Assembly (NCBI GenBank): GCA_964390575.1
Contig: CAYMIP010000004.1
Span: forward strand, 2,262 to 66,261
Reading direction: 5' to 3'
Source: an uncultured Desulfocurvus sp.
GTDB taxonomy: Bacteria > Desulfobacterota > Desulfovibrionia > Desulfovibrionales > Desulfovibrionaceae
Length of the DNA: 64,000 nucleotides
The notes under the pieces were generated by a model. It was not told where the DNA came from, searched no databases, and saw only the letters and a program-made list of their open reading frames with translations. The translations under genes were made by a program, and so were the position numbers. The first letter of the stretch is position 1. Every line of letters starts with the position of its first letter. Positions 11,980-61,168 of the stretch are shown one piece after another.

Positions 11980-13640
<1,661 letters not shown>

Positions 13641-13690: not shown

Positions 13691-13740
13691 AGTTCAAGGC
13701 AAAGCGCCGGAAACCCCCGCGCTTTCCCTGACTCACCAAA

Positions 13741-13785
13741 GCCGAAAGGGCTGGCTCAGGTTCCTCCTGAGCCAGCCCTTTCGGC
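13741..13785 (+). terminator. Perfect 20-bp stem hairpin (putative terminator or element core)
   Basis: GCCGAAAGGGCTGGCTCAGG-TTCCT-CCTGAGCCAGCCCTTTCGGC, followed by GTATTGT. It lies between the two inverted type-1 repeats. Confidence 0.5.
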
Positions 13786-13791
13786 GTATTG

Positions 13792-56898: not shown

Positions 56899-58272
56899 AT
56901 GTCAGGCAATATTCTCATTCTGGACGACGAGCAGAACTACCTGCTCGTGCTCGACGCCATCCTGTCCGACGCGGGCTACAAGGTCACCACCCTGTCCGAC
57001 CCGGAGATGGGCCTGGCCTTTCTCGAGGAATCCGAGGTCGACGTGGTGGTGACGGACATGAAGATGCCCAAGCTCACGGGCAAGGAGGTGCTCGACCACG
57101 TCAAGAAGCACTATTCCTACATCCCGGTGCTCATCATGACCGCCTTCGGCAGCATCGAGGCCGCAGTGGAGGCCATGCGCACCGGCGCCTTTGACTACAT
57201 CACCAAGCCCTTCTCCAACGAGGAGCTGCTGCTCTCCATCTCCAAGGCCATGCAGTTCGCCCGGGCCCAGCAGGAGAACCGCCACCTGCGCAGGCAGATC
57301 CAGGAGCGCTTCGGCCCGGAGAACATCGTGGCGCGCGACAAGAGCATGCGCCACGTGCTGGACATGGTCCACCGCGCCGCGCCCAGCCGCAGCACCGTGC
57401 TCGTCACGGGCGAGTCCGGCACGGGCAAGGAGCTTGTGGCCAAGGCCATCCACAACCAGTCCCCGCGCAAGGACGGGCCGTTCATCTCGGTCAACTGCAT
57501 GGCGCTCAATCCCGGCGTGCTGGAGAGCGAGCTCTTCGGGCATGAGAAGGGCAGCTTCACCGGCGCGGTGTCGCGGCGGCGCGGGCGCTTCGAGCTGGCG
57601 GACAAGGGCACCCTGTTTCTGGACGAGATCGGCGAGCTCTCCCACGACATGCAGGTGAAGCTGCTGCGCGTGTTGCAGGAGCGCCGCTTCGAGCGCGTGG
57701 GCGGCACCGACTCCATCGAGGTGGACATCCGCATCGTGGCCGCCACCAACCGCGACCTGACCAAGGCCATTGTGGACGGCCGCTTCCGCGAGGATTTGTT
57801 CTACCGCCTGAACGTGGTCAGCATCCATCTCCCTCCATTACGGGAGCGGCGCGAGGACATCCCGTTTCTGGCCGCGCACTTCCTGGACCGCTATGCTGCG
57901 GAGAACGGGCGCGAGCTCAAGGGCTTCACCGCGCGCGCCATGGACTACCTCTCGGCCTACGAATGGCCGGGCAACGTGCGCCAGCTGGAGAACGTCATCG
58001 AGCGCTGCGTGGTGCTCTCCTCCACCGACACCGTGGACGCCGAGGACCTGCCGCCGGAGATTCGGGACGAGGAGTCGCAGTTCAAGAGCGCCGTGGACCT
58101 CTTGCCCACCAAGCTGGACCTCTCCGAGACCCTGGAAAAGATCGAGGCGGCGGTGATCCGCCGGGCCCTGGTCCGGGCCGACTTCGTGCAGGTCAAGGCG
58201 GCGGAGCTCTTGAACGTGTCCAAGAGCCTGCTCCAGTACAAGCTCAAGAAGTACAATATTTCAGCGAAGTAG
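56899..58272 (+). CDS. NtrC-family sigma-54-dependent response regulator (REC-AAA+-HTH)
   Basis: 'ILILDDE...VVVTDMKMPKLTG', 'VLVTGESGTGKE', 'ELFGHEKGSFTGA', 'GTLFLDEIGE', 'GNVRQLEN' and HTH 'KAAELLNVSKSLLQYKLKK'. Confidence 0.93.
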   Translation: MSGNILILDDEQNYLLVLDAILSDAGYKVTTLSDPEMGLAFLEESEVDVVVTDMKMPKLTGKEVLDHVKKHYSYIPVLIMTAFGSIEAAVEAMRTGAFDYITKPFSNEELLLSISKAMQFARAQQENRHLRRQIQERFGPENIVARDKSMRHVLDMVHRAAPSRSTVLVTGESGTGKELVAKAIHNQSPRKDGPFISVNCMALNPGVLESELFGHEKGSFTGAVSRRRGRFELADKGTLFLDEIGELSHDMQVKLLRVLQERRFERVGGTDSIEVDIRIVAATNRDLTKAIVDGRFREDLFYRLNVVSIHLPPLRERREDIPFLAAHFLDRYAAENGRELKGFTARAMDYLSAYEWPGNVRQLENVIERCVVLSSTDTVDAEDLPPEIRDEESQFKSAVDLLPTKLDLSETLEKIEAAVIRRALVRADFVQVKAAELLNVSKSLLQYKLKKYNISAK

Positions 58273-58351
58273 GGGGGAGGCATCGGCCTCCGGCGGCCAC
58301 AGGGCCCTCTTTTTTGAGGGGGGGCCCCTTGGAATCCCCAGGGGTGAGAGG
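58271..58351 (+). repeat. REP-like repeat, type 2 (GTAG head, GCCTCCGGCGGCC core, hairpin, TTGGAATCCCC tail)
   Basis: (GT)AGGGGGGAGGCATCGGCCTCCGGCGGCCACAGGGCCCTC-T6-GAGGGGGGGCCCCTTGGAATCCCCAGGGGTGAGAGG. Its TAG is the stop codon of the NtrC-family gene. Confidence 0.8.
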
Positions 58352-58383
58352 CTGGATTGCGCGCAGGCGGAGGAGGAGAACTC

Positions 58384-59292
58384 ATGCAGATGAACGCACA
58401 AAAGAAGCAGCTGCTGGTCTGGGGCGCTCTGGCCCTGGCTGGCGTGGCGGCGGCGATCCTCGTGCTGCCGCTTTTGTCCGGCCCGCGCGGCCCGCGCTTT
58501 GAGGAGATTTTTGGCCGCAACATCATGAAGGCCAGGCTGGTGGGCCAGATGCGCGTCAGCCTGCTGGCTGCGGCCGAGGCCGAGAAGAGCGCCGTGCTGG
58601 CCGAGACCGACGAGGCCTCGGTGGAGTTCGCCCGGCGGGCGCGGCTTTCCGTGGAGCAGGTGGCCACGGCCCTGGCCGAGTGCAAGGGGCTGGTCAGCGC
58701 GCAAACGCCCGATGCGGACATGCTGCTGCGCTTTGAGGAGGCCTTTGGCGAGTACCGCAAGGTGGACGAGGAAGTGCTGGCCCTGGCCGTGCAGAACACC
58801 AATGTGAAGGCCCAGGCCCTGTCCTTTGATCAGGCCTCGGCGGCCTTGGCGCGCATGGAGCAGGCCCTGTCTGGGCACCTGGGGGCCAAGCGCGGCACGC
58901 CCCAGGCGGTCCAGGCCGGTCGTCTGGCCGCGCGCGCCCTGGCCGAGGCCTTGCGCATCCAGACCCTGCACGCCCCGCACATCATGGAAAAGACCGAGGC
59001 GCGCATGGACGAGCTGGAGGCGCGCATGGCCAAGGCCGACAAGCTGGTCCGGGCCTCGCTGGCGTCCCTGTCTGACCAGGGGGGGCAGGCGGCCGTGGTC
59101 CCGGCCCTCGCCGCGTACGAGGATTTCCAGAAGGTCACGGCCGAGGTGGTGCGCCTGTCGCGCCAGAACACCAACGTGCTCTCCCTGGCGCTGTCGCTGG
59201 ACCGCAAGACCAAGGTCCTGGCCGTGTGCGACGAGGCCCTGCGGGCTCTGGAGGAGAAGATCCAGGCGGACATGGCCAAGGGCACGCGGTAG
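58384..59292 (+). CDS. Membrane-anchored all-helical protein (4-helix-bundle MCP-like sensor module, no output domain)
   Basis: N-terminal TM 'LLVWGALALAGVAAAILVLPLL', then about 270 aa of Ala/Glu/Leu/Arg-rich helices. GGAGGAGGAG SD before ATG 58384. Family call is tentative. Confidence 0.6.
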   Translation: MQMNAQKKQLLVWGALALAGVAAAILVLPLLSGPRGPRFEEIFGRNIMKARLVGQMRVSLLAAAEAEKSAVLAETDEASVEFARRARLSVEQVATALAECKGLVSAQTPDADMLLRFEEAFGEYRKVDEEVLALAVQNTNVKAQALSFDQASAALARMEQALSGHLGAKRGTPQAVQAGRLAARALAEALRIQTLHAPHIMEKTEARMDELEARMAKADKLVRASLASLSDQGGQAAVVPALAAYEDFQKVTAEVVRLSRQNTNVLSLALSLDRKTKVLAVCDEALRALEEKIQADMAKGTR

Positions 59293-59345
59293 GGGGGAGA
59301 TAGCCTCCGGCGGCCAAAGGGCCTGCGGCCCTTTGGAATCCCCAT
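59290..59345 (+). repeat. REP-like repeat, type 2
   Basis: (G)TAGGGGGGAGATAGCCTCCGGCGGCC-AAAGGGCC-TGC-GGCCCTTT-GGAATCCCCAT. Its TAG is the stop codon of the preceding CDS. Confidence 0.85.
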
Positions 59346-59411
59346 AGAGGAGCTCGGTTCCTTTCCTGTGGTGAGGGTGGGTCGGAGAAATCTGGGCCGC
59401 CCTCGTTGTCG

Positions 59412-59471
59412 AAAGGGGATCCAAGGGGCGATAGCCCCTTGGCCGCCGGAGGCTTATCCCCTACACTCCCC
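59412..59471 (-). repeat. REP-like repeat, type 2, inverted orientation
   Basis: Reverse complement reads GTAGGGGATAAGCCTCCGGCGGCC-AAGGGGC-TATC-GCCCCTT-GGATCCCCTT. Paired changes in the stem keep the hairpin intact relative to 59290. Confidence 0.85.
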
Positions 59472-59581
59472 CATGCCCCCCCATCGCCGAATACACCGCC
59501 GCGCTCCTGGCCTCGGCGCGCCCATCCGGATGTCAGTCAAAGACCGCGCCTGAAATCGCCACGGCCCCACAGGAGGAGTCC

Positions 59582-60178
59582 ATGTCCGCCGCCATGCTCA
59601 AGGAAGGAATCCTGCCCGGCATCGAAATGCCCGCCCTCCACAGCCCCAGGCGCTTCGCCGTGGTGGACGTGGAGACCAGGCGCAGCGCGGCCGAGGTCGG
59701 CGGCTGGACGCGCGCGGACCTCATGGGCGTGTCCATCGCCGTGCTCTACGACTCCGGCACGGACGAGTACACGGACTACCAGGAGCACGAGATTTCGGCC
59801 CTGGCCGAACGCCTGAAAGCCTTTGATCTGGTGGTGGGCTTCAACATCCTGCGGTTTGACTACTCCGTGCTGGCCGGGGTACACCCCTTCGCCTACGCGG
59901 CCCTGCCCACCCTGGACATGCTGGCCCATGTGCATGAGCGCCTGGGCTACCGGCTGAAGCTGGACAACCTGGCCCAGGCCACCCTGAACGTGGGCAAGAG
60001 CGCCGACGGCCTGCAAGCCCTGCAATGGTGGAAAGAGGGCAGGCTGGACGAGATTACTCACTACTGCCGCCAGGACGTGGCCGTGACGCGCGACCTGTAC
60101 CTGTATGGCCGGGAGAACAAGCACGTGCTGTTCTCCAACAAGGCCGGACAAAAGGCGCGCCTGCCCGTTGGGTGGTAA
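59582..60178 (+). CDS. DEDDh-type 3'-5' exonuclease (RNase H-like fold)
   Basis: 'FAVVDVETR' (Exo I), 'VVGFNILRFDYSVL' (Exo II) and 'HYCRQDVAVTRDLY' (Exo III, H-x4-D). AGGAGGAG SD. Confidence 0.75.
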   Translation: MSAAMLKEGILPGIEMPALHSPRRFAVVDVETRRSAAEVGGWTRADLMGVSIAVLYDSGTDEYTDYQEHEISALAERLKAFDLVVGFNILRFDYSVLAGVHPFAYAALPTLDMLAHVHERLGYRLKLDNLAQATLNVGKSADGLQALQWWKEGRLDEITHYCRQDVAVTRDLYLYGRENKHVLFSNKAGQKARLPVGW

Positions 60179-60256
60179 GGGGGGCTGGTAAGAGCAGGGA
60201 ATATGCTCCGCAGGCCGGGGGAACGAGTCCCCCCGGACCCCCATCAAGGAAAGACA

Positions 60257-61168
60257 ATGCACGGACGACTGCTCAAGGCCGACGGCCTGCTCCTGCTCAC
60301 CGCGCTCATCTGGGGCGCGGCCTTTGTGGCCCAGCGCCTGGGCATGGAGCACGTCGGCCCGTTCACCTTCAACGCCGTGCGCTTCGCCCTGGGCGCGCTG
60401 GCCTTGCAGCCGCTCATCTGGCGCATGCAGCGCACCCGCACCCGCGAGGGCAGGACTTCGGACCTGCATCAGGGCATCGATTCCGCGCGCCTCATCCGCT
60501 GCGGGCTCTTGGCCGGGTGCGTGCTCTTTGCGGGCGCAGCCTTGCAGCAGGTGGGCATTGTCTACACCACGGCGGGCAAGGCCGGGTTCATCACGGGCCT
60601 GTACGTGGTCATGGTGCCGCTGTTCGGGCTTGTGCTGGGCCAGCGGGCCGGGGCAGGCACCTGGGGCGGAGCCGTGGCTGCGGCCGTGGGCCTGTACCTG
60701 CTCTCGGTGAACGAGGATTTCAGCGTTGCCTACGGGGACGTGCTGGAGCTCATCGGCGCGGTGTTCTGGGCCGGGCACGTGCTGCTCATTGGGCGGCTCT
60801 CGCCGGGCATGGACGCCACGGATGCCGTGAAGCTGGCCTCAGCGCAATTCGCGGTGTGCTCGATCCTGAGCCTGGGCGTGGCCGTGGCCACGGAGCCCAT
60901 GGCCCTGGCGGGTATCGCCAAGGCGGCCGTGCCCATCCTGTACGGCGGCCTCATGAGCGTGGGCATTGCCTACACCCTGCAGGTGGTGGCCCAGCGCGAC
61001 GCCAACCCGGCCCACGCGGCCATCATCCTGAGCCTGGAGGCCGTGTTCGCGGCCGTGGCCGGCTACTTCCTGCTGGGCGAGGTGCTTTCCATGCGCGCGC
61101 TCATCGGCTGCGGGCTCATGCTCGGCGGCATGCTGCTCTCGCAGCTCAGACCTGAGGCCAGGCCTTGA
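60257..61168 (+). CDS. DMT-superfamily (EamA-like) transporter
   Basis: 10 predicted TM helices in two EamA-like halves ('LLLLTALIWGAAFVAQRLG', 'LIGAVFWAGHVLLIGRL'). ATG 60257. Confidence 0.85.
   Translation: MHGRLLKADGLLLLTALIWGAAFVAQRLGMEHVGPFTFNAVRFALGALALQPLIWRMQRTRTREGRTSDLHQGIDSARLIRCGLLAGCVLFAGAALQQVGIVYTTAGKAGFITGLYVVMVPLFGLVLGQRAGAGTWGGAVAAAVGLYLLSVNEDFSVAYGDVLELIGAVFWAGHVLLIGRLSPGMDATDAVKLASAQFAVCSILSLGVAVATEPMALAGIAKAAVPILYGGLMSVGIAYTLQVVAQRDANPAHAAIILSLEAVFAAVAGYFLLGEVLSMRALIGCGLMLGGMLLSQLRPEARP

Follow-up and report, generated by a model that had tools for sequence, protein, structure and literature searches.

A stretch of 64 000 nt from an uncultured Desulfocurvus sp. (GenBank assembly GCA_964390575.1, contig CAYMIP010000004.1, positions 2262 to 66 261), referred to below as the window, contains three short palindromic repeats, E, F and G, of which E lies behind a response-regulator gene and F and G lie behind the 4HB-like gene that follows it. 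The reading favoured here, with a probability of roughly 0.6, is that these repeats belong to a family of modules of the 3′ untranslated region (3′ UTR) which is widespread in the Desulfovibrionaceae, is built in the manner of bacterial interspersed mosaic elements (BIMEs) and is independent of RAYT, the transposase associated with repetitive extragenic palindromic (REP) sequences. The modules share one anatomy, follow a common rule of placement relative to stop codons, covary in their stems, are spread over much of the bacterial family, occur in genomes that lack a RAYT gene, adjoin native stop codons and exchange variants between loci. No match to Rfam at the gathering score was obtained for the whole window (sub-threshold chance matches only), a full-text literature search returned no description of the head sequence in this context or of such repeats in Desulfovibrio, and the repeat family is apparently undescribed so far.

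The source genome (G000) is a 2.92 Mb draft in 148 contigs with a GC content of 66% and a completeness of 98.8%. From this genome, 46 clean copies were aligned, a covariance model was built from the alignment and the genome was searched with it. The census of 2.9 Mb yielded 70 modules with the conserved 5′ segment termed the head and a further 16 that consist of hairpin and tail only; about five of the 70 head-bearing copies overlapped called genes and the remainder were intergenic. A first-pass annotation, made from the sequence of the window, had reported three copies of a dispersed REP-like palindrome; these were recovered at the same places by sequence reading, with a repeat finder and with the covariance model, and their membership of a dispersed family is borne out by the census. 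The number of three was too low, as a fourth neighbouring copy had been overlooked and the family is large genome-wide. The core GCCTCCGGCGGCCA occurred five times in the window (0.28 expected), and dozens of core-bearing copies with differing stems were present in the genome. What had been separated as 'type-1' and 'type-2' repeats are stem subtypes of one family.

Each module consists of a purine-rich leader of variable length, the head, a GC hairpin and a C-run tail, in this order. From −10 to −2 the leader is mostly A or G, with A or T at −1, and it contains 80% purine compared with 51% after stop codons generally. The head, GCCTCCGGCGG, is 11 nt long, nearly invariant and unpaired. It is followed by a stem of 8–12 bp (about 10) with a loop of 3–5 nt, mostly TGA, and by a tail with the consensus (A)ACCCCC. 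A variant head, GCTCCGCAGGC, is carried by ∼12 copies in the source genome, one of which is the fourth copy of the window. The family is a mosaic in which several stem types and the two head types are combined with two classes of long hairpin, L1 and L2, that are described below; units with the variant head at one end and the standard head at the other were observed in other species.

In the window, E, F and G were each found by sequence reading and with the repeat finder to contain the core, then the GC hairpin and then a tail (A)ATCCCC. Three consecutive plus-strand genes are each followed by a plus-oriented module, the last of which, the fourth copy, begins 26 nt past the TAA codon (60176–60178) of an RNase_H-like exonuclease gene. 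F and G are inverted with ∼68 nt between them, and the 185 nt F–G unit is predicted to fold into one long hairpin (−120.6 kcal mol−1, z = −7.5).

Placement was determined relative to genes called with a retrained caller of our own, which agrees with Pfam at the window locus. The head begins −1 to 22 nt past the last base of a same-strand stop codon in 50 of the 70 modules, with a mode of 7–14 nt; this stop-proximal fraction of 71% compares with 5.3% by random placement within spacers (p ∼1e-47). With the head 7–14 nt past the stop, the hairpin begins about 18–25 nt past it, and given the size of the ribosome this distance would lie just beyond the footprint of a terminating ribosome. Repeat units occur between convergent, tandem and divergent genes in 36, 24 and 3 cases, respectively, against a background of 175, 647 and 293 (p = 2e-16), and several of them span the entire stop-to-stop spacer of convergent genes. 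The stop codons beside the repeats are TAG in 32, TAA in 12 and TGA in six cases (n = 50), so that TGA is depleted relative to its genome-wide share of 34% (p = 3e-4). In the gene calls of the source genome as a whole TAG accounts for 47%, TGA for 34% and TAA for 19% of stops; TAG is thus the commonest stop codon, which is unusual at 66% GC.

A second hairpin of at least 12 bp was found within 130 nt on the 3′ side of 50 of the 70 modules, and within 11 nt for 37. These long hairpins are near-perfect, comprise 12–28 bp and fall into few families (L1, GCCGAAAGGGCTGG...; L2, GCGAAGGG...CCGGCGCAAAGCC...); some have T-rich tails, with at least three T in the next 8 nt for 17 of the 50. The usual layout is therefore stop codon, leader, head, REP hairpin, C-run and long hairpin, and between convergent genes it is mirrored, which gives rise to inverted pairs. 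Among close pairs, 16 were truly convergent, with the heads outward, and none was divergent; many copies are single. Between 58100 and 59700 no intrinsic terminator was flagged at E, F or G, and one weak match inside the coding sequence of the regulator was at the level of shuffled sequence. The L1 long hairpin constitutes a repeat family of its own: it has ∼20 perfect pairs (for example at window positions 13739–13787 and at C68:5246–5290), its loop occurs in either orientation, AGGAA or TTCCT, with the AGGAA form displaying a GGA motif, and its dominant stem centre is genome-specific. At the orthologue of the gene end at window position 13636, the relatives G012 and G017 have no repeat and carry a canonical intrinsic terminator, AAAGGCTCCGTCCGGCAGTGCGCCAGGCGGAGCCTTTTGATTT, close behind the stop instead.

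The stem of F is CCAAAGGGCC/GGCCCTTTGG and that of G is CCAAGGGGC/GCCCCTTGG; each is fully paired, and the compensatory change between the two copies is thus as first reported. In the alignment of copies from the source genome both-sided changes were found at seven of ten stem pairs, and the score collapsed when the partners were slid against each other. The percentage of paired positions in these copies is circular, since they had been selected for pairing. As a fairer test, 148 copies were taken from ∼100 contigs of other genomes using a search pattern that left two stem positions free and were aligned to the model; the two positions were GC in 91, AU in 53 and CG in two copies, and GC in 102 and AU in 37 copies, with one and five unpaired cells, respectively. 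A clean double change was also seen between orthologous copies at the nfnB gene end, where the stem is CCGGGGGG...CCCCCCGG in G003 and CTGGGGGG...CCCCCCAG in G005. Covariation within the source genome and in the 148 foreign copies upholds the early proposal that structure is under selection. Selection on the hairpin is real; these alignments do not tell the RNA level and the DNA level apart.

At 12 orthologous gene ends a head-bearing module was present in roughly half of the relatives, and these modules mostly differed from those of the source genome in stem subtype, head type and leader length. The centre of the L1 hairpin is GCC/GCT in the source genome and TTT (or CTT) in G003, G005, G012 and G017 at the same sites; as both arms have changed together, this requires copy-paste rather than point mutation. 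Apart from its leader, which is GGGGGCG there, copy F has the identical sequence in G003 despite ∼78% identity of the flanking coding DNA; the same genome holds a head-less remnant that is partly homologous to the hairpin of copy E. Tandem arrays are present in G013 (L218 176–787 on C7 and L219 on C13), with four complete 156 bp units that are 94% alike, each consisting of the standard head, a hairpin, a central hairpin, a hairpin and the variant head. The different module variants found at orthologous gene ends point to copy-paste turnover. F occurs without G in G003 and G without F in G019 and G014. The earlier description of F and G as a 182 bp element resembling a BIME or a MITE (miniature inverted-repeat transposable element) therefore stands as to the inverted, BIME- or REPIN-like pairing; the two copies bracket ∼68 nt rather than 66 nt, and as their arms are inherited separately they do not form a single mobile piece. 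Metagenomes were scanned for the 3′ end of the regulator gene and gave other species only (87–92% identity), with no empty site of the same species.

Of the 70 copies, 16 have a GTAG in the 30 nt upstream of the head, at offsets from 5 to 22 nt. It arises where a codon ending in G precedes a TAG stop, as is the case for 33% of TAG-terminated genes, and in E and F it comprises the last base of a sense codon and the native TAG. It had been noted early on that this TAG is the stop codon of the regulator and of the 4HB-like gene, and the reading frames indeed end there, at 58272 and 59292. That the repeats had captured these stop codons is contradicted by the orthologues. The regulator gene ends in AAG-TAG in 18 and in TAA in two of 20 genus relatives, and the same AAG-TAG/TAA end is present on seven metagenome contigs; none of the 20 orthologues has an intact E-type head-bearing repeat, two have an inverted G-type copy nearby and two have decayed traces. 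In relatives that have no intact repeat (G007, G012, G018, G020 and G002), of which G018 keeps a degenerate F/G-like pair, the 4HB-like gene has the same TAG stop, often with GGGG after it. Beside copy G, the complementary CTAC is part of a conserved CCCTACACTCCCCC-ATG segment, which G020 retains with no repeat adjoining it and which is also present in G019 and G014. Twelve other gene ends with a repeat were compared in six species, and the stop codon was at the same position in 56 of 59 orthologues and at most one codon off in the other three. As stops are conserved in orthologues with or without a repeat, the repeats adjoin native stop codons and donate none, and by this comparison GTAG is flanking sequence and not part of the repeat.

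The search for a RAYT gene took in the source genome and 60 relatives. No match to the Pfam profile Y1_Tnp (PF01797) was found in the source genome, and 20 of 21 genus relatives were likewise without one, the sole match in the genus being weak. The repeat pattern itself is present in 19 of the 22 genomes of the genus (the source genome included); the 100% complete genome G003, in ∼10 contigs, contains at least 39 repeat copies and no Y1 match. At 12 Y1-transposase loci of relatives no copy was found nearby with the repeat model. With the covariance model, the family was detected in 90 of 151 genomes and 43 of 72 genera of Desulfovibrionaceae, with Solidesulfovibrio, Nitratidesulfovibrio, Humidesulfovibrio, Desulfocurvus and Bilophila among the carriers, and copy numbers range from zero to at least 39 among sister species. 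Three genes of the source genome are bracketed by repeats; from their translations all look ordinary and none looks transposase-like, no profile search having been run on them, and a repeat-bracketed enzyme gene (a 'REPtron') was rejected as a candidate on these grounds.

The link to RAYT that the first-pass annotation had drawn from a conserved GTAG head would make the modules GTAG-tagged REPs that are cut and copied by this Y1/HUH transposase and that donate the stop codon. GTAG does precede the head in all three window copies, inverted doublets exist, and a hairpin with a conserved single-stranded segment on its 5′ side may be likened to the substrates of HUH enzymes (reviewed in PMC3733652). 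A tag confined to fewer than a quarter of the copies at varying offsets, which at E and F comprises the native stop codon and at G is part of a segment that persists where the repeat is missing, speaks against it, as do the lack of PF01797 in nearly closed genomes rich in copies and of repeats near Y1 loci, and this explanation is barely credible. Of the observations that the annotation had itself named as telling against its proposal, few copies and no covariation were not found; a GTAG that is not conserved was. An insertion of the IS630/Tc1 type, in which a MITE targets the TA of a stop codon and restores the stop, would account for the over-representation of TAG and TAA and the depletion of TGA beside the repeats, for the TA on both flanks of the F–G unit and of a unit at C12:38452–38632, and for the first base of the leader, which is always a purine, so that TA plus leader would spell a stop. 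The distance from stop or TA to head, however, spans −1 to 22 nt and, at a given site, varies from species to species, leader lengths are unequal within a single unit, the head has no TA within 34 nt in 14 of 70 copies, and a fully occupied stop-to-stop spacer between convergent genes cannot be produced by one insertion. F alone in one relative and G alone in two others argue in the same direction, and no parent insertion sequence was seen, though insertion sequences were not searched for exhaustively. A TA-duplicating MITE was rejected because of the variable leaders, the TA-less copies and the independently inherited arms, and targeting of TA in general is very unlikely.

The modules might instead be selfish or neutral palindromic DNA which has no function for the host, is spread by gene conversion or by some enzyme and survives where it is harmless. 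Positions shortly after stop codons or between convergent genes are such sites, and the turnover of variants at orthologous positions, the genome-specific dominant variants, the tandem arrays, the wide range of copy numbers between sister species and the lack of a head-bearing copy at about half of the orthologous gene ends would all be expected. Tolerance alone nevertheless fails to explain a preferred distance of 7–14 nt combined with a fixed orientation (71% versus 5%), a head that is invariant over 43 genera while stems change, or a copy F that is letter-identical in two species despite 78% identity of the flanking genes, and we regard this as an unlikely alternative. A further proposal, by analogy with the BIMEs of E. 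coli, to which gyrase and IHF bind, is a site that acts in the DNA: at gene ends, a nucleoid or topology protein would bind the near-palindromic head (GCCTCCGG|CGGC) and a cruciform-prone hairpin. The architecture here is BIME-like, the head equals its own reverse complement at ten of 12 positions, one copy is a perfect palindrome, GCCTCCGGAGGC, and stem mismatches are without a clear bias towards the sense strand. The variant head is non-palindromic, however, and the strict orientation and a distance that is set by the stop codon indicate a process reading the strand of the gene; a DNA-level site is therefore improbable.

In the reading preferred here, that of a RAYT-independent 3′-UTR module family, the module would be transcribed with the upstream gene, most likely as part of its 3′ UTR, as it has a fixed orientation between the stop codon of the gene and a terminator-like hairpin. 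It may then provide a structured 3′ end, serving as an exonuclease barrier or as a partial terminator or termination insulator. Such 3′-end roles have been proposed for REPs generally (PMC3733652, PMC2817692). The head resembles a recognition site, being invariant while the stems drift, and could be recognized by some factor; spread and homogenization would proceed by copy-paste, through gene conversion or a non-Y1 enzyme. Several observations weigh against this reading. All gene positions rest on our own gene caller, ten of the 70 heads face the start of a gene and five others lie 32–147 nt from a stop codon. The REP hairpin is not itself a canonical intrinsic terminator, since its tail is C-rich and not U-rich. 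On the sense strand of the gene the stem mismatches are A–C in 20 and G–T in seven cells, an excess of A–C that is contrary to what selection on the sense RNA predicts; folding energies, however, showed no significant strand bias (p = 0.41 and 0.17). Neither a head-binding factor nor a mobilizing enzyme was identified.

The best-known relatives in form are the REPs and BIMEs of enterobacteria and pseudomonads, including REPIN doublets and RAYT transposases (PMC2817692, PMC3116915, PMC3733652). Like these, the modules are short, GC-rich, imperfect palindromes in tens to hundreds of extragenic copies, mostly downstream of genes, which are joined with linker motifs, in inverted orientation, to form mosaic units and arrays and whose hairpins change in a compensatory manner. 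Mosaic REP types, alternating orientation, recurrent linkers and arrays, by which a BIME is defined, are all found in the Desulfovibrionaceae family. It differs from GTAG-REPs with RAYT in having neither the GTAG tag nor the RAYT gene; an 11–12 nt single-stranded head and a purine-rich leader replace the 4 nt tag, the pairs are arranged heads-outward around a long terminator-like hairpin, and the spacing from the stop codon is tight. The exclusively convergent pairs recall REPIN doublets, yet the arms of F and G separate in relatives and many copies are unpaired. The CGTC-tagged REPs are a superfamily without a known dedicated transposase which lies mostly downstream of coding regions and is probably transcribed (Di Nocera et al. 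2013, PMC3733652). The present family is similar in these three respects; neither CGTC nor GACG is found at either end of the module in the consensus or the alignment, and the taxon and the consensus are different.

A resemblance to MITEs such as Correia/NEMIS of Neisseria lies in units of 130–280 bp with inverted ends, in their location at gene ends, their probable co-transcription and their uneven presence among species. Unlike those MITEs, the units lack a constant terminus and a target-site duplication (the unit ends showed no direct repeats), no parent insertion sequence was seen, and their arms are inherited independently. In E. coli, REPs near stop codons reportedly lower the translation of the upstream gene through ribosome stalling, as ascribed to Liang, Rudd and Deutscher (Mol Cell, 2015). 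Here too, the repeat hairpins lie within about 15–25 nt of termination codons; they differ in mostly beginning about 18–25 nt past the stop, and thus probably just outside the ribosome, and in that the family is known from sequence alone. The GC hairpin with an immediate U-tract that characterizes a Rho-independent terminator is not displayed by the REP hairpin, and the adjacent long hairpins partly qualify. More speculatively, the invariant single-stranded head, its distance past the stop on the scale of a ribosome footprint and its occurrence in at least 43 genera could mean that it is recognized by an RNA-binding protein or 3′-UTR nuclease, or by a non-HUH copying enzyme. The modules might then constitute a clade-wide system of marking gene ends and a third type of REP, with machinery of its own, beside the GTAG and CGTC types; we consider this possible but doubtful.

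The coordinates of the repeats and of their neighbours are given in Table 1.

Table 1 Features at the locus of repeats E, F and G (window positions; bit scores of whole copies E, F and G are from the covariance model built from other copies).
Feature	Position	Strand	Basis or remark
Sigma-54 (NtrC-type) response regulator, open reading frame	56899–58272	+	Pfam Response_reg, Sigma54_activat, HTH_8
Native TAG stop of regulator, outside repeat	58270–58272	+	Reading frame, Pfam, orthologues
Copy E	58276–58340	+	42.8 bits
Copy E leader GGGGGAGGCATCG	58273–58285	+	G-rich; pairing with head and with tail possible (predicted fold)
Copy E head GCCTCCGGCGG	58286–58296	+	Core search, covariance model
Copy E hairpin	58297–58332	+	Atypical stem, expanded T-rich centre (predicted fold)
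Copy E tail AATCCCC	58333–58339	+	Tail conserved in 46-copy own-genome alignment
4HB-like protein, open reading frame	58384–59292	+	Weak 4HB_MCP_1 match, 24.4 bits, under 27-bit cut-off
Native TAG stop of 4HB-like gene, outside repeat	59290–59292	+	Orthologue comparison
Copy F	59293–59344	+	68 bits
Copy F leader GGGGGAGATA	59293–59302	+	Sequence
Copy F head	59303–59313	+	Covariance model
Copy F stem arms; loop TGC	59314–59323, 59327–59336; 59324–59326	+	Predicted fold
Copy F tail AATCCCC	59337–59343	+	Sequence
Central imperfect hairpin of F–G unit	59373–59404	none	In place of the long L1/L2 terminator-like hairpin of other units
Copy G	59413–59463	−	53.8 bits
Copy G, whole, as read on + strand	59415–59461	−	Tail complement GGGGAT at 59415–59420
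Copy G stem arms; loop	59421–59429, 59434–59442; 59430–59433	−	Predicted fold
Copy G head complement; leader complement	59443–59453; 59454–59461	−	Covariance model
Conserved CCCTACACTCCCCC-ATG segment 5′ of next gene	59461–59478	+	Contains CTAC beside copy G
RNase_H-like exonuclease gene	59582–60178	+	Pfam
Fourth copy, variant head	60195–60244	+	28.1 bits, covariance model
Fourth copy head GCTCCGCAGGC	60205–60215	+	Followed by hairpin and ACCCCC tail

Some further observations concern the genes of this locus. In G012 (L151/L133) the last ∼60 nt of the regulator gene (...CTCCAGTACAAGCTGAAGAAGTACAACATCTCGGCGAAGTAG) recur as an orphan duplicate just past the stop codon of the 4HB-like gene, and the 4HB-like gene is missing in G019 and G014. 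This suggests an insertion of the 4HB-like gene behind the regulator that duplicated the junction, an event which would explain the flank TAGGGGGGAG that is common to E and F. Upstream of the exonuclease gene, positions 59475–59553 contain the ∼17 first codons (ATGCCC..ATCGCCGAATACAT.GCCGC.CTGCTGGCC) of a gene that is full-length in relatives and, by its similarity to other N-termini, probably encodes a helicase; they differ in the length of a C-run and then diverge. This segment looks like the remnant of a truncated gene. Long spurious antisense reading frames, such as 59537–60778 on the minus strand, outscore real genes in a simple codon-usage caller in this GC-rich genome; the one named extends to copy G and would wrongly imply a convergent gene there.

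REP-type repeats have been understood mainly through the GTAG/RAYT model of gammaproteobacteria. The family in the Desulfovibrionaceae combines the architecture of REPs and BIMEs and selection on the hairpin with the absence of both the tag and RAYT, and yet it persists in most of the sampled genera, among them genera with laboratory strains. For genome analysis it is of practical concern, as the modules give rise to long spurious antisense reading frames in annotation and break assemblies, many matches being located at contig ends. With a tight, oriented spacing from the stop codon and an invariant 11 nt head, both the maintenance of the repeats and the shaping of mRNA 3′ ends are directly testable in model sulfate reducers.

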